The notes beneath the pieces were generated by a model. That model did no database searches. It saw only the letters and a program-made list of their open reading frames with translations, and had not been told where the DNA came from. Positions 2,326 to 46,400 of a stretch of DNA of 64,000 nt are shown one piece after another; position 1 is the stretch's first letter, and each line of letters starts with the position of its first letter. The stretch lies in NCBI GenBank assembly GCA_963575745.1, contig CAUYUJ010000225.1, positions 310,001 through 374,000 on the forward strand. The letters run 5' to 3'. A program made the translations under genes and the position numbers. Source of the DNA: Prorocentrum cordatum. Lineage: Eukaryota.

Positions 2326-4600
2326 CCCCCACTTGGATTGCCAAGCGTTGCACCCCGCCGGGTTGTCCGTTTGTCCGCCCGTTCGTCTGTGTGTCTGTCT
2401 TCCCGGCTCTCTGAGCCGCGGCGTTTTGAGCTTCGTAGCTCAGGGGCGCGTCGGCCACCGCCGCCCTCTCCCTTGTTGGTGGCCCTGACGAAGTTGGGGG
2501 AGAGGGTGCCGAAACGCGCCCACAATCAAGCAAGGCATGAGGGTGCAAACCCGATTTGTCAGACTGATGCTCCGGCGGGGCCCGTGCTCAGGGGAGGCTG
2601 CAGTATCGCTCAACGATGTGCTGCTTATCCGAACCTGCAGGGTAGGCCCTTTCCCACATGCGTGCCTCGGTGCAGATTGCGCGCCTCGTCTCGGTCGTCG
2701 TCGTCGTCGTCGTCGGCGCCGTCGTGGTCGTGGTGCGTGTTGCTCTGCTCTGGACTTGTTTCCCTCATGCACTGACCACCCACTTGGATTGCCAGGCGTT
2801 GCGCGCCGCCTGGCTGTCCGTTTGTCCGCCCGTTCGTCTGTCTGTCTGTCTTCCCGGCTCTCTGAGCCGCGGCGTTGTGAGCTTCGTAGCTCAGGGGCGC
2901 GTCGGCCACCGCCGCTCTCTCCCTTGTCGGAGGCCCTGACGAGTTTGGGGGAGAGGGTGCCGAAACGCGCCCAGAGTCCAGCGAGACACGAGGGTGCAAA
3001 CCCGACTTGTCAGACTGATGCTCCGGCGGGGCCCGTGCTCAGGGGAGGCTGCACTATCGCTCAACGATGTGCTGTTTAACCGAAACTGCAGGGTGGGCCC
3101 TTTCCCACATGCGTGCCTCGGTGCGGATCGTCTGCGCGCCTCGTCTCCGTCGTCGTCGTCGTCGTCGTCGTCGGCGCCGTCGTGGTCGTGGTGCGTGTTG
3201 CTCTGCTCTGGACTTGTTTCCCTCATGCACTGACCACCCACTTGGATTGCCAGGCGTTGCGCGCCGCCTGGCTGTCCGTTTGTCCGCCCGTTCGTCTGTC
3301 TGTCTGTCTTCCCGGCTCTCTGAGCCGCGGCGTTGTGAGCTTCGTAGCTCAGGGGCGCGTCGGCCACCGCCGCTCTCTCCCTTGTCGGAGGCCCTGACGA
3401 GTTTGGGGGAGAGGGTGCCGAAACGCGCCCAGAGTCCAGCGAGACACGAGGGTGCAAACCCGACTTGTCAGACTGATGCTCTGGCGGGGCCCGTGCTCAG
3501 GGGAGGCTGCACTATCGCTCAACGATGTGCTGTTTAACCGAAACTGCAGGGTGGGCCCTTTCCCAAATGCGTGCCTCGGTGCGGATCGTCTGCGCGCCTC
3601 GTCTCCGTCGTCGTCGTTCGTCGTCGGCGCCGTCGTGGTCGTGGTGCGTGTTGCTCTGCTCTGGACTTGTTTCCCTCATGCACTGACCACCCACTTTGAT
3701 TGCCAGGCGTTGCACGCCGCCTGGCTGTCCGTTTGTCCGCCCGTTCGTCTGTCTGTCTGTCTTCCCGGCTCTCTGAGCCGCGGCGCTGTGAGCTTCGTAG
3801 CTCAGGGGCGCGTCGGCCACCGCCGCTCTCTCCCTTGTCGGAGGCCCTGACGAGTTTGGGGGAGAGGGTGCCGAAACGCGCCCAGAGTCCAGCGAGACAC
3901 GAGGGTGCAAACCCGACTTGTCAGACTGATGCTCCGGCGGGGCCCGTGCTCAGGGGAGGCTGCACTATCGCTCAACGATGTGCTGTTTAACCGAAACTGC
4001 AGGGTGGGCCCTTTCCCAAATGCGTGCCTCGGTGCGGATCGTCTGCGCGCCTCGTCTCCGTCGTCGTCGTTGTCGTCGGCGCCGTCGTGGTCGTGGTGCG
4101 TGTTGCTCTGCTCTGGACTTGTTTCCCTCATGCAGTGACCACCCACTTTGATTGCCAGGCGTTGCACGCCGCCTGGCTGTCCGTTTGTCCGCCCGTTCGT
4201 CTGTCTGTCTGTCTTCCCGGCTCTCTGAGCCGCGGCGTTGTGAGCTTCGTAGCTCAGGGACGCGTCGGCCACCGCCGCTCTCTCCCTTGTCGGAGGCCCT
4301 GACGAGTTTGGGGGAGAGGGTACCAAAACGCGCCCAGAGTCCAGCGAGACACGAGGGTGCAAACCCGACTTGTCAGACTGATGCTCCGGCGGGGCCCGTC
4401 CTCAGGGGAGGCTGCAGTATCGCTCAGCGATGCGCTGGTTAACCGAACCTGCAGGGTAGGCCCTTTCCCAAATCCGTGCTTCGGTGCGGATCGTCTGCGC
4501 GCCTCGTCTCGGTCGTCGTCGTCGTCGTTGTCGTCGGCGTCGTCGCGGTCGTGGTGCGCGTTGCTCTGCTCAGGATTTGTTTCCCTCATGCAGTGACCAC
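2325..4600 (+). repeat. Tandem array of five ~455-bp units
   Basis: The unit start CCCACTT(G/T)GATTGCCA recurs at ~2328, ~2779, ~3237, ~3690 and ~4142. Length differences are mostly in an internal (CGT)n run. The terminal units are the most diverged. Confidence 0.95.
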
Positions 4601-4639: not shown

Positions 4640-6880
4640 TCCTCTTTCCTCCTCCCCCAATCCCCGCACGTAGGTCGGATGAAATTCGTGGTCGGTTAGC
4701 TCGCTCGATCGTCCTGTTGCTGTAAGAACCGCGCTCTGGCAGCTCGGGCATGCTGTGCAATCAACATCGGGTCAACATTGGCCTGTCTCCGAATCGAGTT
4801 GTGCAAATACAAACTTATAACGAGAGGTTGCACAGCAAGGAGTCTGTCCTCACTCGTCATGGCTCGGGCGATTCCCAATCGGCGATCAAGGCTGACCCCA
4901 CACGAAGCAGACGAGACCCACACGGAGCATCCCACAACAACGGACAAGACAAATAATGCCTCTGAATGTCACTCTCGCCAGGGCAACCGAATTTGCAAAC
5001 AGCGTGGACCTGGAGAACCCTCCGCTCCGTCGTCCACCCACCCGCCACCGTCTTTAATGCCGAGGCCTGCCAAGCTGGGGGAAATCCAATCAGACACTCT
5101 TTGAGCATCTGCCAGCTGCACACCGCTTTTGCCTGCCTGGACGGGGGGCCTCGAGGCCCATTTCTCGAGGCGCTTGAAAATGGTGGCACCCAAATCTTCT
5201 TTGAAAAGCTCCAGCTCGCGGACCCGCGAAATCGTCCTCTGCACAAGGACCCGAATCCCAGGAGACAGCAGCTGCGCCTGGCAGAGGGCGTCAAAAGCAA
5301 CTCTGACAGGGGCACGGAGGCGAGGGCAAGCAGGGAAGCCATCAGCAGCGGCCGCGAGCTCCTGAACGAACGACGGCTCGACCCAATGCGCTGGAGACCA
5401 CCTGTCCTTGAGCCGGGAAGTCACGGGCAAGTGGGTCCTCACTGCCTCCTGCTGCTGCTGCCACAGTCCACGCCAGTTGGTGATTGTGCCCCTCGCAGAC
5501 CTCTAAAGAACCGACACAGACTGCACACGCATCGATTGGGGTCTGAGACGGGACCACTGTCGAAGGGCGAGCAGTTGCTCCAAGGGGAAAGTATAGGCAG
5601 GGAGATGCAAGACCTTGTGGAGCGCCCACGACTCCCATCGAAGAATGGGCCAGGGCAGGGGAGTAAGTTGGGAGAGGTAGCTACACTTGGACACCGCACG
5701 CGAATTATAAAGGGTCACCGCTATCGAGGGGTCGGCCTTTGTCGCAGCAGTGTCTTTAATCACCCCCACGCACCCTCTGAACGCACGAAACCACACAAAC
5801 TCTCGGGTAGCTGCTGGGCCGATTCACACCCCAAGATATTCAGCGGTATCAGATATGGAAATCTGGGCCCATTGAAGGACATACTGGGTGAGCTTTTCAC
5901 GAACAAGACCTTCCAACCGCAGTGTGAGAGGACCCGAGACAGAGATTATGTGGAATGTTGGAAGCTTGAGGCAAAGGCCTGCAAACAGCCTGGCCGCATA
6001 GAACGAGCCCGGCAAACGCACCAGCGCAACAAGCTCTCTCACCGCCACCCCCATGTCATCCGCACAGGCCCCCACCTCCGATCCTGGATGCTTGCGCAGC
6101 CTGCTACGCATGTCGCGAATTAAAGGGTACATCACAAGCGCCCACAAGCTTCCACTCGCAGGGTCGCCCTGCATCAGCCCCGATCCCACAACACAGAACA
6201 CAGAACCGCAATGGCAAGCCCTGCAGTGCAACACATGCTGAGGCGAAAGCATATGTGGCCCTCAGAAAGAGACGGAAGCCTTCAGAGAGACCCACCAGCT
6301 CCAGAACGCGCCAACGAAGCATGTGAATCAGAGAGGGGAAAGCGTTCCCAACGTCGAGGAGGAGGATGAGGAGGAGGGAAAGATTCGAGGCCGCATTCGG
6401 GAGCATACTGGAGATCCTAGCAGAGGTCTCGAGCAAAATTATATGGTCTAAGAACTTTATACCCAAGACATATCCGCGCTGATCGCGATGTGCATCCTGA
6501 GTCAGGATGGGCTTCACATGATGATTGCACGCCGTAGCCAGAATCTTAACATCAGTGCTCTTTAGCGCCAAGGGTCTGGTCGCTGCAGATTCTCTTACCA
6601 CAAAAGCCGCATCCTCAGCAAGTCGGCCCTCGGGGGCGAAAACGAGGAGAAGCTCATTCAAATCCACAGGCGGCGGAAATCCCGAGAGCAGTTCCAGGAG
6701 GAGACCATCGAGCACGGGCGCAGCTATCTTCGCGTTCTTCCACGCCGCGTACGGAAGCCCATCAGGACCCGGGGCCGTGGGAGAAGCACGCTCACGAGTG
6801 CGTCGCAGCATATCTTCAGTGGGCGGACTCATCTCCGACCAATCAAAAGCCTTGATTGGCCTTCCGTCAACTGGTTGTTG
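4640..6880 (-). mobile_element. 5'-truncated, frameshifted non-LTR (LINE) retrotransposon: RT domain, C-terminal cysteine motif, short 3' UTR, ending in a (GGA)n-rich run
   Basis: Motifs in order: TAPGPDGLPYAAWK, TRPLALKSTDVKIL, DQRGY, LLDVGNAFPSL, (frameshift) SGLMQGDPASGSLW, GACADDM (~6055-6070), AEYLGV, then CKFGCPGESDIQRHYLSCPLLW (~4930-5000). Final stop at 4696. Confidence 0.93.
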
Positions 6881-34898: not shown

Positions 34899-36444
34899 AG
34901 GGATGGATGCCTGGCGGGTCAGTCGGGTCGTTGAGCAGGATCGGACAGTCAGCGTGCGCACTCTCTTGCACACAAGTCAGCGCCATTTTGGCAGCTTATC
35001 TCTTGCACACAAAGCCTACAGGACCACCGTCTCCCTTTGCGCAGTCTGCTGCCTTGCCCGTCCCAGTCCCCAGTCCTGGCGCAGACCACGATTTCAGTCG
35101 CTGCCAAGCGAGCCTGTTCGCCTTTCGCCCTCTCGCACGGGTCGAGCCACACGGCTGTCAGCGAACGCTACATTCTTGCGTGTCTTAGACCGCGGTGCGT
35201 CTCGTGCATATGGGTTGGATTGGTGGGCAGGATTACTTGATGGAGGAGTTTCTCGGCGCGGCCCGTACACTCTCGCGAGCACTGCTCGTTTGCAGAGCCC
35301 GTGTGTCTTGCAGAGGAGGACCAGCGAGCGAGAAAGAAGAGGGATTAGGGCCCAGGTCTGCGTTCCAGCCTTACCCACTCCTCGTCTTCCTCTTTAGCAC
35401 TTTTCCTCCTCCTCCTCCTGCCCCTACTCCACAGTGCCCAGGCCATTGCTGCAAGCCCCTTTAGCGTTTGCCGGCCAAGCTGAATATTGTTGAGGGTGGG
35501 GGTTCAGGATGGATCGTAGGTGCGAAGATTCCTCCTGCGAGTGCCGTGCGATGGATCTTCCTCCTCGGCCGACGGCCGCCTGACGGCCACCTGTATCGGC
35601 ATAGAGGTTCCACATGGTGTTCCCAATGCGGTACCGCCATGCCTCATAGATGCCAAGCTGAGTCGTTGCCATTCGTCGGCAACCTCGAGCAGGGAATGTG
35701 GTCTGCGTCCCAGCCTTCCTCCTTCCCGCTTTACGTAATTCATTCCTTCCCTCCCTCTGCCCCTCCGCCCGAATGCCCTGGACGGGCACAGCAAGCCGCT
35801 GTCGCAGCTTTCGCGTTTGCCGCCCAGTTGCCCAGCTGAAGGGTGGGGATATTGCGCGGAGGTGGGAGGATTATGGTGAGGTGGGGTTGGTGCACTGGTA
35901 CTGTATACTGCAAACCTTAGGTGCCCGTGCGATCGCACTATTTCTGTTGCATCGCTAGCCGCAGCGCCACCGTAACTCGACAGGCTAGTTGCCTCAACGA
36001 GCAGGCAATCCAAAATCCCTCCGTCCTCCCTCCTCCTCTCCAGCACCCCTGGAGGCCGGCTGTGACAGTCAGTTCAGTCCTGGACCTCTCTCGAGCCACG
36101 GCTGCCAGTGGAGGAGCAACAGCAGCACACACTGGCGGCGCAAACAGTGCGAGTGGATCTCGAGCAGTGTTCGGGGCGTGATGAGCGGACACCTGCTCCT
36201 CTTGCCCTTTTTTCTTGTCGTCGTCTTTTTGTTTTTTCTTGTCATCCTTGTCCTCTTCGTCGTCCTCCTCCTCCTTCTCATCCTCCTGCACCTCTTCTTC
36301 TTCCTCCTCCCTCCTCCTCCTCTTCCCTCCTCCTCCTCCCTCTTCCTCCCTCCATTTCCGTCCTCATGTTCCTCTCCTCCCTCCTCAATCCGTCATCCTC
36401 CCTCTCTCTCTCCTCCCTCCTCCCTCCTCCGCCTCCTCCTCTTC

Positions 36445-36527
36445 AGCATCACGATCACCACCACCAGCATCATCATCAGCATCATAATCAACATCATCAG
36501 CATCAGTCGCATCAGTATTAAAATCAG

Positions 36528-36586
<59 letters not shown>

Positions 36587-36910
36587 CCATCACCTTATCA
36601 TCATCAGCATCAACAGTATCATCAGCATCGTCGTCGTGATCACCACCACCACCATCGTCATAATCAGCATTACCATCATCAGCATCATCACCATCAGCAT
36701 CAGCAGCAGCAGCAACAACATTATCATAATCGTCGTCGTCATCAGCACAATCATCAGCATGATCATTAGCATCACCATCATTATCATCATCAGCCGCATC
36801 ATCGCCAGCATCATCATCATCAGCATCACCGTCATTGTCATCGAATTCGTCATCGTCACCACTAACAGCATCATCCTCAACAGCATCACCATCATCGTCA
36901 GCATCGGAAG
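36445..36910 (+). repeat. Compound (CAT)n microsatellite flanked by (CCT)n
   Basis: Direct reading. Confidence 0.95.
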
Positions 36911-37242
36911 TATCATCCTTACTCCTACACCTGATCCCTCCTCCGGCGCATCCTCCGCCCTCATCCTCGACCATCCTCCTCCTCCTCCCCACCCTACGTT
37001 TTCATCCTCATTCTCCCCCCTCCTCCTCCTCCTCCTCCTCCTCCTCCTCCTCCTCCTCCTCCTCGTCATCATCAACTTCAGCCTTACGAGAGTGTGCGAA
37101 ACAACTGACAGCTCCCTCGCCACGGAACCACGGGGGAGCCTCGGGGCACAGTGACAGGGGCCTCCCTTTTTTCCTCGCGGGCGGCACGGCCAGCTGTATT
37201 TATCTCAAGCGTTGTGCCCCAGCATCCATAGAGGAAGCTGCT

Positions 37243-37446
37243 TGGGAGGCCTGGAAATGGGCACCAACACCAAGACAGAGGGCTGCCTCCACAGGGGGGA
37301 GGTGATCCTAGATTTCGGTGTTGGTGGTAATGTTTCGGCCACCTTGGAAGCCAGAATATTACCACCATCACCGAGATCGGGATCTTCTTCCCTCGGTGGA
37401 GGAATACCGCCGATCCTGGTGTTGGTGTCGACCTCTAGGCCTGCGA
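37243..37446. mobile_element. 204-bp palindromic MITE inserted in terminal repeat B2, with a CTGCT target-site duplication
   Basis: B1 reads GAAG-CTGCT-CAAAC; B2 reads GAAG-CTGCT-[insert]-CTGCT-CAAAC. The insert is self-complementary along its length (CACCAACACCA/TGGTGTTGGTG; TCGGTGTTGGTGGTAAT/ATTACCACCATCACCGA). Confidence 0.85.
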
Positions 37447-37836
37447 CTGCTCAAACAACTCACTGAATTCTGGAGCGAAGCTCCACTCCACGAAAAAAAC
37501 GGAACAGCGCAAAGGGAGGAGGCTGGAAGCCACACGCGCCACGGAAGCAGGCTGAAGCAAAACGTGCACGCACGAGTAGCCTTTGCCTTACGAGCGTGTG
37601 AGACAACTGTCAGCACTCTCGCCACGGAACCGCGGGAAACCTCGGGGCACAGTGACAGGGACCTCCTATTTCACACGGGCGGTGCGGCCAGTTGTATTGT
37701 CTCAAGCGTTGTGCCCCAGCGTCCACAGAGGAAGCTGCTCAAACAACTCAAAGAATTCTGAAGCGAAGCTCCGCTCCACTCGCGCAAACAATTATATATT
37801 GGGGTGGTGGTGGGACCTTCTCCCTAAAAAAAGCAC

Positions 37837-38575
37837 TCACGACAGCACAGCAGCAAAGGATGTAGACCCGAAGCATTCGATGCCGTTGACAAAGGCACTG
37901 GCTAGGGCTCTGGAAAAACGCTTTGGATGCTCCTCGGCCGCTCGAGTCCTAAAACGTCAATTCTCGTCTTTGCTCGATAAAGAGACGTGCTGCTGTTTCG
38001 TTCTGGAGCACCTTCCCTTGCAGAGCTTGCACCTACGGCCTAGAGACTCAAAGGGCAAAAAGCTAGCTACTAAACGAATCAGCCTCATCCAGGGCACGCC
38101 CCATTGACAGAAATCAGTTCGCACGTCACGTTTTCTTGCGCCTTCGTAAGTGAGCCATTTGAGGAGCCTCTTTTTTATGTTTATTGTTTTACGTAGCGAC
38201 GCCACCTGCGCGATACTCACCGTGCTTTTCATTGTTTTGCTGCCGAGCTCAATCTTCCAGGGTTCTCCTTCGTTCCGCAACACCGGAAACCCACGCATGT
38301 TTTCAAGATTCCGAAGAGGCTGCGGACCGCTGGGTCTAGCACAAGCCCGCGACCAGGACGCGCAGGGAGCCCCAAAGTGCATGCCCAGAACGTATCCAGA
38401 CATCACCCAGCCTCTGATGCATCTTACTAAGGTTCGCTTACACATATCGTGCTTGACTCCATGACGAATGCCGATGGCACTTGCAAGGTCGCCGAAATCG
38501 TGACATCTCTCGCGACAGTCTGGCTGTCCCCGAAAAGATCTCAAGCAAGAGCGGCACCATCAAATCACGCATAGG
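37837..38575 (-). pseudogene. Cytosine-5 DNA methyltransferase-like domain of the retrotransposon (disrupted)
   Basis: LLEIFSGTARLSR (motif I-like, ~38510-38550), frameshift, MHFGAPCASWSRA (PC motif IV-like), DFCQWGVPW, Cys/His cluster RCKLCKGRCSRTKQQHVSL, in-frame stop at 37957, then TRAAEEHPKRFSRALASAF. No ENV/ENP-like motif VI is visible. Confidence 0.7.
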
Positions 38576-38628
38576 CCAGTTGGCGCCTGCAGCGGCGCGG
38601 CAGCATTCAGCAGGATCCTCGGCACAGC

Positions 38629-39250
38629 CTACAAACACCTGCCGGCGTACCCCCTCACTAGCACAGAACACCGACATAAGAGCTCGTTGCCGAGGCCGAT
38701 CGCTTCCTCCCGGCCGGAGTCGCGCACGCTCTGCGTCACATTCTCCTTCAGCTCCACAGCGCGGATACTGCGCAGACGCAAGAGGGCCGCGGCCGCGGCG
38801 GGCCAGGCCATCTCGACGGCCTCCTCGAACTTGCCGACCTTCCAGCTCACTCTGAGCGCGAACGGGTGCAGAAGGACTATGGCTGTGACTCCTGCGCCGC
38901 TCGCGACGACGGGCGGGTGGCCCTTTCCCCAGGTTGTCCTCGACTCGCTGACCTGCCTGCCCGCGGTCGAGAACGCCCGCGCTAGTGCGGCCAATAGCCT
39001 GCCGCCCCCGCTGCCCGCCACGCTCTCGACGAACTCCTCGTTGAGGTGCTCGGCGACCGCGAGGTCCAGCTCTGGGGTGCGCATCTGGCCGAGGAACCGC
39101 GCGAGCTCGCCCTGCGTCCGATCGAGCTGGGCCACGCCGACGTCGCGCGCTACAGGCGCGCTCGGTCGGCGAGCCAGCCGCGCCAGTCGACGAAGATACG
39201 ACCACCGCGCCGGCGCCTTCACCGCAATGGTTTCCGGCATAGCGCGCCCC
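38629..39250 (-). pseudogene. Tyrosine recombinase remnant with internal deletions
   Basis: ELDLAVAEHLNEEFVESVAGSGGGRLLAAL resembles the N-terminal binding domain; IVLLHPFALRVSWKVGKFEEAVEM resembles the catalytic-Lys hairpin. It lies directly after RNase H. No HxxR or Tyr box is recognisable. Confidence 0.55.
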
Positions 39251-39544
39251 GGCAGCGCTCGCGCACCTCCGTGAGCGCCCTGACAGCCCCGAACCCGCCG
39301 TCGCACATGATCGGGAACTCCCACGGGCACTTGACGTCGTCGGCCCAGGCGCGCTGCCGGCTGCGGCGCAGGCTCGACCACGTTCGTTTGCAGTGCTGCC
39401 TGCAGCCGGGGGCGACCCCGCATCCAGGCGCTTCCAGCCGACCTGCGACGCCACTCAGAGAGAGCACTCCCCCCTCGCGAGCTGCCCCGCCCCCTGCGAT
39501 AGCTGCCTCCAGAGGCCTCCGGACAGGCACGGCGCAGCCCGCGG

Positions 39545-41778
39545 CGGGAGGGCTCGTCAGCAGCGTCCTTCTCACTCGGTGCCCACCGCGAACACAGCTG
39601 GGCATCCCATAAGAGAAGGATGGCCGCCAACTGGCTCTCGACACGACGCCGGCCTGGCGCGCTGGGCCCCCCTTTTTGGACCGAAAGCAACGCGCCCATC
39701 GAATTGGTCAAAGCCACCGCCCGCGCATCGACATACTGACGGACCTTCGCAATCTCCCCGACGACCCCGACCAGAGTTCGACCTTCAAGACAAGCGGTGC
39801 GTTCATTGCGCCCCCACGCCTCACTGCACTCAGCATGCCACTTTGCAGGCGGCAGACTAGCGTGAAGCCCGGGAACAGGGGGCGCCCCGCGTTCGACCAG
39901 TCCAACGTTCATCTCCATCTCCCCCTTCCTCCTGTAATCCTTCAAGCAGAACGTCTCGGGGGGTTGCCCGACTTCCCCCCGGGAAATGCCGCCCATCGGA
40001 GCATCTGCCAGCCTCGTCCAGCACCTCTGCGAGCGGACGAGCAGCGCAAATCCCAGGACCCCACGGAGACGCATCACAAGCGTATGATTTAGGTCCCCAT
40101 GGTTTGGTGAGGTCGCGCTCCAATAACGGAAGCAACGCCCGAGCCCACCGCAGTTCCCCCAACGCGGCAGGCCACGCATTACTCGGGCGATCTGGGTTCT
40201 TCTCGATGAACACGTACACGGCGCGAAAGCAGGACAGCAACTCCAAACGAAGAATCGCCTGGCGGGCGACGTGGCCCAAGGCATTGCGAAGCGACCTCCC
40301 CGAGCACATCCGCCTCCTGAGAAGAAACTCCAACGCGAGCCACACCTTCCACCTCCTCTCCTGCCGCGGTAGCATCCGCCCTTCTCCTGAATCGCTGAGA
40401 CCGAGAAGATCTCCCCCGACTGCGACGACATCGACCTCATGAGCTTCCAATACCACGGCCCGAACTGCTTCCAGTGACCCGGTAGTGATCTCACGACACA
40501 TCATGTGAACTCGAGAAAACTCAGACATTGTCGACATACACTGAGACGCAACCATCTTCCAGGCCCCCAGTCGGCCTGTGACCCTGTAACAGATCGGAGC
40601 TGGAAAACACCTGACCCAGGATCCTCTCGTGCATCGGCTGACACCGATGCAGCAAGTGCGCCCAGCCCATTGGCATGGCAGAAAGCCGAGGTCGGGCAAT
40701 GCCACCGGTGCGCTCGATATCGGAGCAGCTTCTTCATCCATTTCGCCTTGATGAGGGGGTGGATGGAAAAATGAGCATTTCGGGGGGTGTTCCGAACTGA
40801 AAGAAGGCATCCTTTGAACCGTACTGACCTACATACAGCTGCTCTCCGGCATCAAGTCGCGAACGAGACAAGCCTCCAGCCGTCGGAAGCTCGACGTGGT
40901 CGCAGCTTGAGAATAAGCAATTCGACTGCCGGCAGTCGGCAATAAGACGCTGGGCGCCACTTTTCTTGCGCACAGTAATAAGGCCCACGAAGGCGACGCC
41001 CTCCCCCTGCACAAACTCTACCATGTTCCGTAGGAAACAACATCTCCAACACCGACGCAGATCGACGAGCAGACCTGGGCAAGCCAGGATCATGGCATAT
41101 CTTCATCCCGCTCGCCTCAAGCCGCCGCGAGCCCACTGAGTTTGGCAACGCGCGCTCGCTCACCCACCCTTAGACTTCCTCGCGCCCACTCGGGCCCAAC
41201 AGTTGGCGCACGTCAATGAGGGCCGCCCCTCCTGGCCGAAGCGAGGGCAGAGACTCGCCCAAGGGAACTGCTGGACTCGAAAAAGCCTCGGCCGGCTGAT
41301 GCTCGAAAAAGCTTCGGCCGGCTGGCGCTGGGGAGAGCCAGAGACACCCCCCGCTGATACTCGAAAAAGCCTCGGCCAGCTGAGCATCCGCAGGGGGAAC
41401 TCCCATCCTGCTGCAACATTCACGGAGGTGCCCAGCCCTGTCCCCGCCTATAAAATCAGAGGAGTTGGCAGGAGCCTCGGGAGCGCCACCTAGATACATC
41501 TCAGACAGAACCCAGGCCGCATCCGAACTGAGCCTATTCAACAACTGCTCTGGCGAGTCTGGAAGACTGCTCAGCCCTGGGGGCCTAACAGCACAGATCG
41601 GATACATTTTCTCCGACGCCGTCACCCGAGTAGTTAAATCGCTGCCATTTGCCGCCAGCGTTGTTAGTAGCCGACCTGGCGCGCATCTTGAATGAGCCGC
41701 CTCATCAAGAGGCAGCGGGCCTCTCTGCGTTGCCCGCTGCCGAGGGGGGCCATCCCCTGCAGCCGCGTGCGGGCTCAT
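39545..41778 (-). pseudogene. DIRS-type reverse transcriptase and RNase H (disrupted)
   Basis: VGLITVRKKSGAQRLIADCRQSN, SKDAFFQF, MPMGWAH (~40660), SVYVDNV (~40530), SYACDASPWG, LEGRTL, ALTNSMG and RWAPSEKDAADEPSR. Confidence 0.88.
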
Positions 41779-41837
41779 GACTTCCCACCCCCACCACGTC
41801 CACCTCCTCCGCCTGGGGGCTGGCGGATAAGGGCTCG

Positions 41838-43404
41838 TTATTATCGTGATTTCTTGGCTTGTTTCTGGATCAGCGATTCCTCTTCCAGCTCTTTACTGAC
41901 ATGCTCCACCAGATCTGGCGAGCAGCAGACGGTAGAGTTCACATGTTGGCGCCCCTCAAACAGATCCATCTTATCGCTCGTAATCGCGGGAGGCCCCGCG
42001 ACCGAAGAAACCGCGCCAGCAGATCCTCCTAGCTCCCCATCTCGGACCTTCTCAGGATACTGATATTCAATAGACTGCAGTTGGCGAGCTATCTTCTCAA
42101 TCGCGACAAGGTTTGACAAGTCAAGCTGATCGACACAGCCTGCTGACTCCAAAAATCCGCAGAGTCGAGCGTGTTCGGCAATCCCCCAATCAGCTGCATT
42201 CAATCTCGCCGTTGACCGCCACCACCTATGATGATATATGATGTTCTGAACCTGTGTTACGACGAGCCATGAAGCGAGCCACCCAAGTAGCATTTCTTGG
42301 CCCGTCGATAAGCCAATAGTCGATCGCGCTCACGTTCAAGCTCCCGGCCACACTGTTCCAAGGTCGCTGACGCTCTCTGGTAGGCGAATACTTCACCGGC
42401 AGGACACGAGCATCGCTGGCATCAGCATCTTCCCTCCGCCAAGCATCTGCCCTCGCCCGAGGCACCTTCTCCACCGCAAGCAGATCAGGACCGACGCGAG
42501 CAAGAGCAAGTTTACGATGACCAACACTAGCATCAGGCTGGCCAGCGCACTCGTCACCCGCTGCGATCGTGGCGCTGCTCTCGGTGCAAAGCCAGACCTC
42601 TGGCTCCGCTGCCGCAGGCTGCACGCCTCCGACCGCTAACGCCACAAGGTCCTGAGCCTCCTCCACCAGCCCCTGCAACACGCCTCCAGCTGGCTCAGCA
42701 CCCCGCCTGAAGTTGTACACGTTGGCACTCTGCATGCTGGCTGGGATGCTGCCGTCGGGACGAAAGGTTCGCACCCCTGTGATGTCACCGTTGTTCGGCC
42801 CGTGGTCCTCTTCGTAGAGGTCCCCGTCGGGAGTGTAGATCACCCAGCGAGTATCGCCTACGCTGGCCAGAAGCAGCACAGCGTGCCACAGGTCATCGTC
42901 GTAGCGGACCAGCACCTTACGTCCTGGAGCCAACGACGAGGACACCACCGCTGGCGCCGCCGCCGCGGCTGGGGCGCCCCCACCAGAGCCTGCGCCATTG
43001 CCTATGAACAGCTGCGGCGGCTCGCGACATCTCGCGCTCCTCCTGCCCAGCAGCAAGCCGATCACCAGCGCGACCAGCACCAGCCCGAGCTGCACCTCCA
43101 GCCTGAAGGTGAACGTCGAACCAGTTCCTGTCGCACACTCTGGCCCCTGAAGCTGCTGCGCAACCAGGCGCTCGAGTGCCGCACACTCCGCCGCCTCGCC
43201 TGACCCTATGCACTGGCACACGCAAGGTGGACAACTGTCTTGTGGCGCCGCCGGAATGTCAATCAGACTGTGCAGACCGAAAAGAGCATTTTGGTCAGCA
43301 TTTAGAACAACAAGGGGTCCACCTGCATGCGGACCAGGGAGCCCTTCCGAGCCACACACGCTACGGAAGCAGACTGAAGCAAGACGTGCACGCACTAGTA
43401 CCAT
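41838..43404 (-). pseudogene. gag-like ORF of the YR retrotransposon (frameshift near 42230-42290)
   Basis: 392-aa plus 150-aa ORFs with VLVRYDDDLWHAVLLL, WVIYTPDGDLYEED, DARVLPV, WLIDGPR and DQLDLSNLVAIEKIARQLQSIE. It lies between A1 and the RT. Confidence 0.75.
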
Positions 43405-46400
43405 CTACATCATCAGCATCAGCAACATCAGCAGAATCCGCAGCATCATCATTCTCATCAGCATCATCAGCATCCCTCCTCAAAATTTATGTTTGTCATG
43501 CTTATCCCTGCTCCTCCTCCACCTCCTCCTCCTCCTCGTCCATCCCTGTCGCACACCCAGACGTGTTGGTAGGGCCGGCTGGGCGTTTCGCTTCAGGCTT
43601 GCTCATCATGTAAGTTCCTGGCGCCTGAAATGTGCGGGTCACTTTCAAAATGTGGCTCTCGCCCTAGCGCTGCGCACATTCGAGCTAAAGAGCTGCAACA
43701 GCTTCAGGGAGGGAGGGGGCCGTTTTCAACACGGGGCCTACCATGCGAAGGAATGGCGTATTCCAGGAAGGGAAGGGCGTATTCCAGCATCGCTGGTGAG
43801 TCACGGGCTTACTACGCTTCTCCTCCTCCTCCTCCTCCTCCTCCTCCTCCTCATCATCATCATCACCACAACCATCATCAGTGCTTGCGCCGAAGAAGGG
43901 CGAGAAGTGCCGCGGGGCAGCCTGCAAGCACCCTCCACCTCATTGGAGGCCACTTCTCCTCCTTTTTGTCATGACTGGGGCCTTGGGGTTCCCGCTGATG
44001 CCCCTCCTCCGCCTCTGCCCCAGCCGTTGACGCTTATTGCGGGAAAAAAACAAAAGCGGTCCACAATCGGGAATATGCAGAGGGCAAGTGGATGTGCACA
44101 GCATGTAAGGATCAGGCTGGATCGTCGACCCATCAGATAGCCCGAGCTTGGCCGAAGACCCTAGGGGCCATAACCTAGTTGGGCTCAGAGTATCCAGATA
44201 ATTGAAGCGTCCTCATATTGTGCAAGATCTGCTGCTCTTGCACGAGCCTCGGCTCCAGAGGCCTGAAAAGGAGCCTGCAATACTTTCACTCTCAGCAGCG
44301 GCGCCGCTTCTCAGATGTCTAGGGCGTTGAAGCTTCAACACCCCAAGTGAGTCAAGCATTATCCAGTGATTTCCAAGCCGCCAATTCCCTTGGCTCAGTT
44401 TTGCAAGCAACCCGTGGGACAGCTTTCCGACGCCCGCGCTTTATTTATATGCTACCTCAGCGTCGCAGGCGCCCGGTACCTTCTTGTCGCCGCGCTGGGC
44501 AATCGCGGTGGATCGCCAGACTCTTCCGATAGCCGAATGGTCCTCCTCCATCCCACCCCTCCCTGTAGCACGCCGAGGCCGGTCGAAAGGGCGGGCTGGG
44601 CGTTTCGCCTGACTCCTCCTCACCATTTACGATGCTGAAATCTGAACTTTGCAAGGATCGTGCGGATGGAGGGCGGGCCGTTTTCAACATGTGGCTCTCG
44701 CCGTAGAGCCGCGTACGTGCGTGCTACAAATGTGCAAGAGCTTCACGGTTGGAGGGCACCCCATATTAAAGATATGGCTCTCGCCTCAGAGCTGCGCACA
44801 CTCGTCGTAATCGTTTGCAGCAACTTCACACATGTAGGGCAGCCCTTGTTTTTGTTGAAAAAAAACTATCGCCTTAGCGCGACGTTCATTCGTCTTAACC
44901 ACCGTTGCCCACAGTTTCAAGGATACAGAACAGTCCCTTCTCAAAATTGTGCTCTCGCTTTAACGCCGCGCACATTCGTCTTACGAGTTTCCAGCAACTT
45001 CGAAGGATTATCAGGCATAACGTCCCAAAGCCAGTGTCTTGGCACGATGTCGGAATGTCGGGGCGTAACAGTCACGTTGATTCGCGGTGTTGAAGTTCCA
45101 GGAATGGGACAGTTCTGGCACAGTTCTGGCTTTTCAAACGGTTGCCTTCGAACGCGGCACTTCTCTCAGTGAGAATGAATCCTTGTAGGAGCCTATGAAG
45201 AGGGAACTTCGAGGGAGGGTTGATTGCAATCTCGTTGTTGATTTTACACTGGTCCTCCCTCCTCCTCCTCCTCCTCCTCCTCCTATTGTTATTCCTCCTC
45301 GTCCTTCTCCTCCTCCTCCTCCTCCTCCTCGAGGCCAGGGGCGGAAGCTGTGGCGCTGGCTTTGAACCGCATGGAGGCCAGCAGGCGCTGGATGGCGACG
45401 TGGGAGGGGCACCCTGGTTTCATCATCTTGCAAAGCCTCGGGAGGGCAGGGGGGGAGAGGGCACGGGAGCGAGAGGCCAGGGCTGGAAACGACGGAAGGG
45501 AGAAGCCGGCGCTGGAGACGACAGGAAGAGAGGGGAAAGAGAAGGAGAAGGACGGGGGGGAAAGAGGAGGGAAGGAGGAAGAGGAAGAGGAGGAGAAGGA
45601 GGAGGGCTCATTGAGCCAACACGTTGCCTTTGGCCCACTGAGGAAGGATGAGAAAGATGAGGGGAGGGGAAAGGATGAGGGAGGAAAGGTAGAAGGCGCA
45701 AGAGGCGGATGTGAAGGAGGAGCATGATCAAAGAGGCCCCCGGCAGGGATGACAGAGGGAGAAGAAGAGGGGCGAGGAACCCATGACGAGACCAGGAGTG
45801 GGAGGAGGGGAAGGAGGATGGGGAAGGAGGATGACAAAAGGGAGAGCGGGGCAGGAGGAGGAGGAAGAGAAAGAGGAGGAGAGGAATGACCAGCGAGAGG
45901 GGAAGGTGCAAGAAAGAGGGAGCACCTTAGCTGCAATCTTTGACCTGTGTTGACGGGGGTGAGGGCTTGGCATCAGTGGCCCCACATGTGGCCAGGGATA
46001 CCCCAATCGTCCAAACCACCCACCCACCAAGGAGCACGGGGACCGGGAGTCCCATGCGAGGCCTGAACCCAGGACTGTCGCCGGCTGCAGCTCGGCAGGC
46101 TGGGCTGGACGGAGTCCAAGGAGATTGGGACCGAGCCTGTTGCGTGGCATGCTGGCGCAAAGGGCGATCGAACGGAGTGCTATGGGTGGTGTTTCAGGGG
46201 GAAGGGGGCGTGGGGAGTCAAGACCCAGTTCTGGGCAACCCCTCGGTTCGAGAGGACTGCGACGAGGTGCGCGCTCCCCTCCCGACGATATCCCCCATCA
46301 GCACCGACCCTGCCTTCCTAAAACCGACGCGAAAGATGATCAACGAGAGGGGGAGGCGTGAGAGAGGCAGCGCCATAGCTGCAATATTTGAAATGTGGTG

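Follow-up and report, generated by a model that had tools for sequence, protein, structure and literature searches.

A stretch of 64,000 nucleotides from Prorocentrum cordatum (assembly GCA_963575745.1, contig CAUYUJ010000225.1, positions 310,001 to 374,000), here called the window, holds a decayed retroelement whose last coding domain resembles a DNA methyltransferase. The locus raises the question of whether this domain, designated X, belongs to the element and what its role there could be.

The region from 43417 to 37081 on the minus strand is one degenerate tyrosine-recombinase retrotransposon of the DIRS order. Its split direct repeats are ordered A1-coding-B1-A2-B2 (Table 1), and the coding parts follow each other as a gag-like region, reverse transcriptase (RT, with the motif YVDN), RNase H, a recombinase remnant and X. 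A1 and A2 share 90% identity over 51 nt (43400-43350 versus 37578-37528) and 81% over 68 nt (A2 at 37528-37595). With 84-91% identity between B1 and B2 and coding parts matching far beyond chance, the preliminary description of a split-direct-repeat element holds. The gag, RT, RNase H and recombinase parts and the domain containing LEIFSGTARLS, GAPCASWS and DFCQWG were likewise recovered where it had placed them, on the minus strand. B2 is split by a foreign palindromic repeat of 196 nt (37247-37442), which forms a hairpin when folded (z -7.5) and reaches a summed contig depth of ~3,700-4,400, compared to 2-20 in the element interior. Two young, intact relatives, L020 and L007, have the same split repeats with A2 in the same order; their A copies are 100% and their B copies 97-100% identical.

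Table 1 Features of the element in the window
Feature	Position	Strand	Basis or remark
A1 (5' split-repeat member; element 5' end)	43350..43417	-	adjoins (ATC)n-type simple repeat
Gag-like region, two frames	41844..42846	-	blastx to Polarella glacialis P0074 and cluster mates
RT fingers/palm	40491..41072	-	RT/RNase H profile positions 196-381, E 1.4e-36
RT thumb and RNase H, two further frames	39541..40486	-	profile positions 384-571 (E 2e-42) and 592-706 (E 2e-21)
Tyrosine-recombinase remnant (N-terminal domain and Lys-box region)	38632..39330	-	identity to P0167 and P0166
X, compact C5-cytosine-methyltransferase-like, last coding domain	37840..38553	-	X profile, E 8e-52 to 1e-53
B1 (first copy of 3' repeat)	37585..37779	-	84-91% identity to B2
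A2 (internal copy of 5' repeat, between B1 and B2)	37528..37595	-	match to A1
B2 (element 3' end)	37081..37491 = 37491-37447 + 37242-37081	-	match to B1

None of the open reading frames of the window matched a Pfam family, even at E 10, and the coding parts were identified through relatives. In blastx searches, the window was colinear with relatives of 1150-1770 aa from gag through X. The gag-like region, for which no Pfam family was found, aligns at 26-31% identity with residues 153-476 of P0074 and its cluster mates, a segment that precedes their RT. The RT fingers/palm region matches about 30 long relatives and contains YVDN at 40538-40527 (-). YxDN occurs in 19 of 20 relatives, and YVDN is the native RT motif of the family rather than a lesion. 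Weak RVT_1 matches were obtained for 10 of the 22 relatives scanned, one of them exceeding the Pfam cut-off, and relative P0090 matches PF00336 above the cut-off over the RNase H motif. RNase H-type strings (DAS..., WAPSEKDAADEPSR) lie within 40100-39450 (-). The RT/RNase H relatives include sequences from Symbiodinium spp., P. cordatum and 'Skav' EukProt models.

The copy in the window is an old, low-copy insertion and, as had been suggested, dead. Its three RT/RNase H matches, obtained with profiles built from relatives, each lie in a different frame, which requires at least two frameshifts. Within X, motif I (LEIFSGTARLS, 38545-38513) is separated by one frameshift from the remainder, which comprises the PC motif (GAPCASWS, 38373-38350, Cys codon 38364-38362) and DFCQWG (38115-38098) followed by a Cys/His cluster, all on the minus strand. 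The ENP motif and nine residues are lost, and an in-frame stop is present at 37959-37957. With the recombinase truncated and RT, RNase H and X frameshifted or stopped, this copy itself is functionless.

At 39330-38632, the remnant of the recombinase shows 59-62% identity to both P0167 and P0166, the latter named as a P. cordatum protein. A recombinase profile matches P0167 with E 5e-24 and the window only weakly, at profile positions 100-121 and 258-284; the identity of the remnant was therefore recognised indirectly, through P0167 as intermediate sequence. In the window, the regions of the Arg-I box and the C-terminal Tyr are missing or unrecognisable, and the distance from RNase H to X is ~997 nt, compared to 1108-1458 nt in intact relatives.

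In intact relatives, the linker between RNase H and X in the pol ORF contains the whole recombinase gene, which is read in the +1 frame. Among 31 loci with a recombinase directly upstream of X, it lies in +1 in 27, and the other four are frameshifted and end in +1. In 16 loci, X, the recombinase and the end of RNase H are all present. Fifteen of these have a pol frame without stops over 1108-1458 nt, and RNase H and X share one frame in 13; the third frame contains 23-30 stops over the linker in the listed pairs. The nested ORF carries the motifs YxRPGE, SKTG, RHGGAS, RGRW and RY and matches Pfam Phage_integrase (E 1.6e-4). Foldseek with its AF2 model returned Cre/Tre (E 2.6e-6), XerA, XerH and Tn1549 Int on top, whereas a sequence search of the PDB with a profile of the nested ORFs found no recombinase. 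A sister lineage has the recombinase after X.

Eight pairs of relatives were compared over the linker. For the three closest, identity is 0.49-0.62 in the recombinase frame and 0.25-0.42, near that of the third frame, in the pol frame; for the five more distant pairs, all three frames are similar (0.23-0.33). The linker of ~400 aa is stop-free in the pol frame but unconserved as a protein, and for this reason it may serve as a bridge for ribosomes from RNase H into X. The earlier expectation that the methyltransferase-like domain stands last, downstream of the recombinase, is correct insofar as X is the last coding domain; the two are not simply consecutive modules. Nor do they form one ORF in intact copies, a possibility raised at the outset, since X shares the frame of RT/RNase H and the recombinase lies in +1.

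Two observations could suggest that the terminal domain does not belong to the retroelement and is either an unrelated insertion or an ORF that arose by chance: it has no Pfam match, and it follows a truncated recombinase in a heavily rearranged element. Against this, 50 of 80 RT/RNase H relatives have a pol ORF ending in X, which in intact relatives is fused to RT-RNase H in their frame. A phmmer search found 606 X cluster representatives at E<=1e-3 (89 at E<=1e-10), with Polarella glacialis as a named source; among the best 150 of the 606 matches, 20 are proteins of 1140-1460 aa with X at the C-terminus. The window copy is colinear with X-bearing relatives, and B1 starts ~60 nt past the end of X, as in L020 and L007. 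In a tree of X, two element architectures (28 of type I, 25 of type II) separate at SH-aLRT 100 without mixing, so that X co-diverges with element architecture. On these grounds, we reject an insertion or chance ORF, which is extremely improbable, and the data support X as an integral, selected part of the element family.

X has a length of 215-250 aa and is strongly diverged. It keeps motif I (FxGxG, SAM-binding), the acidic residues that follow strands 2 and 3 and the catalytic Pro-Cys, and has Glu-Asn-Pro instead of ENV, with FxGxG, PC and ENP in the order found in DNMTs. Columns that are invariant or at least 90% conserved include F5, G7, D26, D34, P61, C62, E126, N127 and P128, as well as C156, C181, C189 and H196; this Cys3-His cluster occupies the place of the target-recognition domain in larger DNMTs. 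Of 73 near-complete copies of X, 70 are stop-free. In all 26 pairs compared, pN is far under pS; for the 11 that are unsaturated, dN/dS ranges from 0.05 to 0.23. X thus evolves under purifying selection.

The AF2 model of the intact member P0006 (pLDDT 94.3, pTM 0.89) gave 31 Foldseek matches at E<=1e-3, C5 methyltransferases throughout among the matches listed, at modest TM-scores of 0.34-0.46. In a structural scan against 48,161 chains, 13 C5 methyltransferases rank first, led by DNMT3A (Z 11.3, rmsd 3.6, 183 aligned), with DNMT3B and M.HhaI at 11.1. Generic Rossmann dehydrogenases come next, at Z<=9.4, which leaves a margin of ~2 Z units over unrelated Rossmann folds. The best structural matches share with X the order of motif I, Pro-Cys loop, Glu-Asn and an Arg/Lys-rich motif VIII-like strand. 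They differ in having 12-16% sequence identity to X, in being recognised by Pfam and in possessing a target-recognition domain, where X has its Cys3-His cluster after the motif VIII-like strand. A profile of 48 X members matches DNMT2 (4h0n, E 5e-4), both motif I and the PC motif being aligned to their counterparts, and 8 of 11 listed matches are C5 methyltransferases. Model and motif order together support a C5-cytosine-methyltransferase fold for X, in line with the initial assignment.

Known DNMT catalytic domains are longer than X by ~100 residues, and a search for motifs IX and X and the target-recognition domain identified none of them in this domain. For these reasons, and since it has ENP rather than ENV, X could bind without methylating, or act on RNA. 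Binding without methylating would make it a pseudo-enzyme or a module for nucleic-acid binding; conceivable tasks are holding or flipping a base of the cDNA or circular intermediate, bringing in host DNMTs as DNMT3L does, or employing its Cys/zinc cluster in another step of the recombinase pathway. The conserved Cys3-His cluster, the modest TM-scores and the failure to reach the PF00145 threshold fit such a role. However, the most conserved residues of X are the catalytic and SAM-binding ones (F5/G7 of motif I, D26, D34, Pro-Cys, Glu-Asn), precisely those which pseudo-enzymes such as DNMT3L lose, and purifying selection on X is strong. Moreover, the nearest named neighbours of X by language-model features (0.90-0.91) and structure (TM 0.69/0.77) are ESM Atlas clusters of compact phage proteins of similar size (212-243 aa), partly annotated as DNA_methylase; this is a lead without alignment or E-value, with PF00145 in under half of the members (35-46%). 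We regard loss of methyltransferase activity as unlikely.

A role as a DNMT2-like RNA (m5C) methyltransferase, acting on the element transcript or host RNA instead of cDNA, appears more doubtful still. DNMT2 is the best sequence-profile match of X, companion domains are described as absent in DNMT2-type enzymes (PMC12344493), and methylation of RNA has been considered for the LINE-borne DNMT (de Mendoza et al., PMC5890265). Yet the DNMT2 match spans just motifs I-IV, which are common to all C5 methyltransferases, both structure searches rank DNMT2 under DNMT3A/3B, M.HhaI, DIM2, MET1 and DNMT1, and the position of X at the pol end suits action on the RT product.

One of the closest known systems is SymbioDIRS-Dnmt3, described in PMC5890265. 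It too is a DIRS-type element of dinoflagellates, its repeats are arranged A-coding-B-A-B, and its pol ORF combines RT with a domain of the cytosine-methyltransferase type; the recombinase has an ORF of its own, and two architectures coexist. The SymbioDIRS-Dnmt3 domain was detected by Pfam PF00145 and falls together with eukaryotic Dnmt3 (de Mendoza et al. 2018, PMC5890265). In contrast, PF00145 is annotated in none of the 80 RT/RNase H relatives (precomputed), matches none of 22 relatives at E<0.01, and matches 5 of 48 X members at E<=10 (best 0.019), none reaching the Pfam threshold. X is also ~100 aa shorter, with ENP and the Cys3-His cluster. Because none of the 80 relatives is annotated, X seems distinct from the SymbioDIRS-Dnmt3 domain, in keeping with the distinct lineage that the preliminary description had considered possible. 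For SymbioDIRS-Dnmt3, the text of PMC5890265, as far as available, describes pol domains in varied orders and a reshuffling of the ORFs, and no recombinase nested in pol.

PAT-like and DIRS1-like elements carry a Dam-like methyltransferase domain and a 'long ORF overlap' (Piednoel et al. 2011, PMC3266345). They share the RT-RNase H-methyltransferase pol layout, PAT also the split direct repeats, and an extensive pol/recombinase overlap in which one frame is a stop-free bridge; their enzyme is described as an N6-adenine type (PMC3266345), while X is C5-type by motifs and fold. In DIRS1, according to the same account, the recombinase ORF comes ahead of pol and overlaps it in part, with the catalytic portion outside the overlap. 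In the X family, the recombinase ORF, catalytic part included, lies wholly inside pol between RNase H and X.

Taken together, we consider it probable that the window holds a dead member of a DIRS-order family with a pol protein of RT, RNase H, a ~400-aa linker and X, a recombinase overprinted in +1 and X as a putative C5 methyltransferase of cDNA. In the lineage of the window copy, the whole recombinase gene is overprinted on the linker, whose stop-free pol frame would carry ribosomes on from RNase H to X. X would be an active SAM-dependent enzyme supplied in cis within pol, and may methylate newly made element cDNA before the recombinase inserts it. This role mirrors the one proposed for DIRS-borne DNMTs such as that of SymbioDIRS-Dnmt3 (PMC5890265). 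What is new is an entire recombinase gene in another reading frame inside the pol linker of intact relatives. Through methylation of its cDNA, each new copy may come to resemble the heavily methylated DNA of the host.

Only one element of its kind is present within the 64-kb window, and its features are compiled in the table below. In self-comparison, the copies of its split direct repeats follow the order A1-coding-B1-A2-B2. Features of the order DIRS are present, namely reverse transcriptase (RT) and a retroelement-type RNase H, for which the window matched the profile with E values of 1e-36, 2e-42 and 2e-21. A tyrosine recombinase takes the place of a DDE integrase in the relatives, and its truncated remnant in the window was recognised via P0167, a related protein. 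The unusual termini of the order are found as split direct repeats in the window and in the metagenome loci L020 and L007. Repeat order, profile matches and recombinase remnant uphold the preliminary description of a split-direct-repeat YR retrotransposon, and all strings quoted there were found in minus-strand translations. No useful Pfam match was obtained for 10 window ORFs at E 0.1 or for 6 at E 10. Among the relatives, RVT_1 was matched in 10 of 22 proteins (one above the cut-off), and PF00336 was also matched.

Features of the retrotransposon in the Prorocentrum cordatum window
Feature	Position	Strand	Basis
Whole element	about 43417-37081	minus	stop-to-stop ORFs and three-frame translation
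YVDN	40538-40527	minus	translation
RNase H-type strings	about 40100-39450	minus	translation
LEIFSGTARLS	38545-38513	minus	translation
GAPCASWS	38373-38350	minus	translation
DFCQWG, followed by Cys/His cluster	38115-38098	minus	translation
Repeat A, A1 and A2	43400-43350 and 37578-37528	minus	self-comparison, 90% identity
Repeat B, B1 and B2	37779-37585 and (37491-37447 + 37242-37081)	minus	self-comparison, 84-91% identity

The last coding domain of the element, referred to as X, was analysed in an alignment of 48 members, from which the conserved columns and the X profile were derived. Invariant or nearly so are F5 and G7 (FxGxG), D26, D34, P61-C62 and E126-N127-P128, as well as C156 (in DFC), C181, C189 and H196. 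In the family, the motifs follow the order of C5 methyltransferases, from motif I (FxGxG) through motif IV (Pro-Cys) to motif VI (Glu-Asn-x); the spacings of 57, 66 and 29 residues between motifs are constant. The search with the 48-member profile matched DNMT2 (4h0n) with an E value of 5e-4, with motif I and Pro-Cys in register, and C5 methyltransferases accounted for 8 of the 11 listed rows.

The AlphaFold2 model of P0006, an intact member, reached a pLDDT of 94.3 and a pTM of 0.89. Foldseek yielded 31 matches in the PDB at E ≤ 1e-3 (prob 1.00, E 2e-4); the rows shown were all DNMT3A/B/C, DNMT1, MET1, DIM2, DNMT2 or M.HaeIII, with modest TM-scores of 0.34-0.46. A Foldseek-independent scan of 48,161 chains placed C5 methyltransferases in all of the top 13 positions (Z 9.4-11.3), including DNMT3A (Z 11.3, rmsd 3.6, 183 residues aligned) as well as DNMT3B and M.HhaI (both 11.1). 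Short-chain dehydrogenases came next with Z values of 9.4 or below, and the margin of X over generic Rossmann folds is about 2 Z units. Since fold, motif order and profile match agree, X is assigned to the C5-methyltransferase fold, and its predicted structure is that of a DNMT catalytic domain. The DNMT-like last domain postulated earlier is thereby borne out: all Foldseek matches shown are C5 methyltransferases and the Rossmann methyltransferase fold is present in the model.

Pfam does not recognise this domain. PF00145 was absent at E<0.01 from 22 proteins, from the precomputed annotation (0/30 and 0/80) and from the window ORFs; it matched 5 of the 48 X members at E ≤ 10 (best 0.019) and did not reach the Pfam gathering score in any of them. 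Known DNMT catalytic domains exceed X in length by approximately 100 residues. Neither a target-recognition domain nor motifs IX and X were recognised in domain X, and a Cys3-His loop and a long C-terminal helix fill that part of the model. The nearest named neighbours of X in the ESM Atlas are compact phage clusters, partly annotated with PF00145, which we regard as a lead only. The ESM Atlas rows for P0006 further contain X-like models (TM 0.69-0.78 by query) in clusters with RVT_2 (94%) or rve/SH3_retrovirus. These models hint, again as a lead only, that an X-like domain may also occur in Copia-type LTR elements.

When a 200-aa ORF (38559-37957) was used as phmmer query against 1.84 billion cluster representatives, 606 relatives of X were found at E ≤ 1e-3, 89 of them at E ≤ 1e-10. 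Fragments, or ORFs of about 250 aa from short contigs, make up many of the matches. The best 150 include 20 long proteins (1140-1460 aa), which carry X at the C-terminus. By blastx, the window is colinear with the long proteins over a gag-like part (42846-41844), RT (41072-40500) and RNase H (40500-39450), followed by about 900 nt without a match and then by X (38553-37840). Named X members are from Polarella glacialis; the named sources in the RT-based search also comprise Symbiodinium spp., Prorocentrum cordatum and 'Skav' EukProt models. A possible intron in X, with GTGAGT at about 38220, was rejected because relatives align without interruption across this position.

A near-complete X was found in 73 metagenome loci and is free of stops in 70 of these. 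Between related sequences, pS greatly exceeds pN in all 26 pairs, and dN/dS ranges from 0.05 to 0.23 in the 11 unsaturated pairs. X is carried by 50 of 80 proteins whose RT/RNase H part is related to that of locus L002, another metagenome relative. Other copies of the element thus keep the domain, which is integral to the family and not an unrelated insertion. The Pfam-invisible DNMT-fold domain is present in elements of at least Symbiodinium, Polarella and Prorocentrum.

The architecture of intact relatives was determined from 80 loci, obtained by a degenerate-pattern scan of metagenome contigs (12-sequence alignment), and layouts were read with profiles for RT/RNase H, recombinase and X. In 31 loci, designated type I, the recombinase immediately precedes X. 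Its frame is +1 relative to X in 27 of these, and the other four are frameshifted and end in +1. The RNase H end is also present in 16 of the 31 loci; the X frame is stop-free over the entire gap of 1108-1458 nt in 15 of the 16, and RNase H is in the same frame in 13. Based on the stop-free gap and the common frame of RNase H and X, RT, RNase H, linker and X form a single pol ORF, in which the whole recombinase ORF (360-490 aa) is nested. The possibility that YR and DNMT constitute one ORF, raised in the preliminary description, did not hold: X belongs to the pol frame and the recombinase is nested in the +1 frame of the linker.

In the three closest of eight pairs, the recombinase frame is 0.49-0.62 identical, compared to only 0.25-0.42 for the pol-frame linker. 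The latter values resemble those of the third, non-coding frame, where 23-30 stops were counted for the listed pairs; in the five pairs at greater distance, identities are similar in the three frames (0.23-0.33). Since it is free of stops and has an identity like that of the third frame, the linker is kept open yet unconserved. The nested ORF features the motifs YxRPGE, SKTG, RHGGAS, RGRW and RY (R-K-R-W-Y set). Its match to Pfam Phage_integrase is weak (E 1.6e-4, below the cut-off), and when the recombinase profile was searched against PDB sequences, no recombinase appeared, only one chance myosin row. The assignment as tyrosine recombinase was therefore settled by the fold search: the AlphaFold model (pLDDT 73 overall, 80-95 in the catalytic part) gave Cre/Tre (E 2.6e-6), XerA, XerH and Tn1549 Int as top Foldseek matches.

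In the second layout, type II, a gap of just 365-726 nt separates RNase H from X, and the recombinase is a separate ORF 3' of X, as seen in 13 loci. A quick IQ-TREE run on X separated type I (28) from type II (25) without mixing (SH-aLRT 100), with 17 members untyped. The type II sister lineage, whose X domains group in a clade of their own, comprises loci L044-L080, e.g. L045:758-3952 and L048:885-7344. The split repeats of the window recur in young type I relatives: in L020, repeat A (334-407 and 6296-6369) is 100% and repeat B (6186-6300 and 6405-6519) 97% identical, and in L007 the A copies and the B copies are each 100% identical. Among public RT/RNase H-related proteins, 21 of 80 fuse this part to the recombinase in one frame, three of them also with X. 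They fall in the range P0200-P0271 and consist of metagenome ORFs and models from Prorocentrum cordatum, Symbiodinium and 'Skav'. Such fusions could arise by genuine programmed frameshifting. We consider them unlikely to be real products and read them as annotation artefacts; probably the models jump frames via predicted introns, or the copies are frameshifted.

The copy in the window is a relic. It has about 997 nt between RNase H and X, with a recombinase remnant in this interval, which identifies it as type I with deletions. The recombinase-like piece is 62% identical to a P. cordatum protein, so that the host is a GC-rich dinoflagellate; its Arg-I box region and C-terminal Tyr region are absent or unrecognisable. 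RT and RNase H are scattered across three frames. X retains FSGTA and PC; it is frameshifted after motif I, has lost ENP (9-residue gap), has an altered PWRKRT and an in-frame stop (37959-37957), and reads EHP in place of PYP. The earlier verdict that this copy is dead is supported by the truncated recombinase, the three frames of RT/RNase H and the frameshift and stop in X. The YVDN string is not a lesion, because RT motif C reads Y-x-D-N instead of Y-x-D-D in 19 of the 20 long relatives (YVDG in the remaining one). The second catalytic Asp of RT is therefore replaced family-wide, in elements that look active.

The repeat copies in the window diverge by 9-16%. Summed contig depth in the element interior is only 2-20 at ≥85% likeness (contigs of the best run, with 39624-40077 lacking contig cover), which indicates few close copies; the copy is old and has few close relatives. 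Compared to the interior, depth is about 3,700-4,400 (run X1) at a 196-nt near-perfect palindrome (37247-37442) that interrupts B2 and folds into a long hairpin (z -7.5). This palindrome is probably a MITE-like or foldback repeat that occurs at very high copy number in the genome. In the 5' flank (43256-43700, 44673-44839), summed contig depth amounts to 26,000-62,000. This flank contains a simple repeat of (ATC)n type. An 84-nt unit (43634-43717) is also present, copies of which at 44673 and 44756 show 67-77% identity. Many contigs loop back inside 43634-43689, suggestive of tandem or satellite repeats. Immediately 3' of the element, 36200-37080 is made up of about 900 nt of triplet-based low-complexity sequence, CCT/CAT/CATCAG-rich on the plus strand and translated into poly-Asp/Glu/Met or His/Ser runs depending on the frame.

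The closest system is SymbioDIRS-Dnmt3 of Symbiodinium, which shares host group, repeats and a DNMT in pol with the present element. According to the accessible text, its domain was found with PF00145 and falls in the Dnmt3 clade (PMC5890265). Such a domain is absent from the 80 annotated RT/RNase H relatives (0/80), Symbiodinium and 'Skav' models included, a distinction drawn indirectly from PF00145 annotation and the published description. PAT-like and DIRS1-like elements are described, in the text available, with a Dam-like methyltransferase and a non-overlapping catalytic part of the recombinase (PMC3266345); the RT-RNase H-methyltransferase layout and the 'long ORF overlap' are common to them and the present family. 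The domain at the PAT methyltransferase position is here of C5 type and not Dam-like: a Dam-like N6-adenine methyltransferase after RNase H was not found in 22 + 12 long proteins (no Dam-family match at E<0.01), and weak PF02086 matches in 3 of 48 X members cover the shared SAM motif. Ngaro elements, in the same source, have no methyltransferase domain and usually no ORF overlap (PMC3266345), unlike the present family with its methyltransferase-like domain and fully nested recombinase ORF. The accessible literature, in which subscription journals are scarcely represented, yielded no prior description of X or of the nested recombinase, including PMC5890265, PMC12344493 and a 2026 DAM preprint.

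The analysis shows X to be a DNMT-fold domain fused to pol. Its SAM-binding and catalytic residues are conserved, it is subject to purifying selection, and it is reached via a stop-free bridge across the recombinase gene. By analogy to SymbioDIRS-Dnmt3, for which methylation of cDNA has been proposed in the text available (PMC5890265), X would methylate cytosines of the element's cDNA, a role we hold to be nearly as probable as not. A DNMT-fold module without catalytic activity, to be weighed between the missing target-recognition domain and the retained catalytic residues, appears improbable to us. An RNA methyltransferase, to be weighed between the profile match to DNMT2 and the structural matches to DNMT3A and DNMT3B, appears more improbable still.

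The main case of mobile elements taking up a host silencing mark is that of cytosine methyltransferases carried by retrotransposons. To our knowledge, those of dinoflagellates have so far been known only as PF00145-detectable domains (SymbioDIRS-Dnmt3, SymbioLINE-Dnmt). With a second, Pfam-invisible DNMT-fold domain, present counts would underestimate methyltransferase carriage by these elements. X would also offer a very small DNMT scaffold for study, and a recombinase fully nested in a pol linker free of stops offers a clear example of overprinting and translational bridging that can be put to the test.

As a tentative joint reading, X may represent an unrecognised minimal clade of C5 methyltransferases, in which a Cys3-His zinc module replaced the target-recognition domain, and which perhaps derives from compact viral enzymes and not from Dnmt3. 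It would have been captured once by a DIRS-type element before the split of Suessiales and Prorocentrales and would now reside in dinoflagellate DIRS elements counted as 'without DNMT' in PF00145-based surveys. Expressed only as a pol fusion, translated through the stop-free bridge over a fully overprinted recombinase, it would methylate the single-stranded or circular cDNA intermediate. If this is true, DIRS elements of dinoflagellates would as a rule methylate themselves, and the Symbiodinium case would be no oddity.
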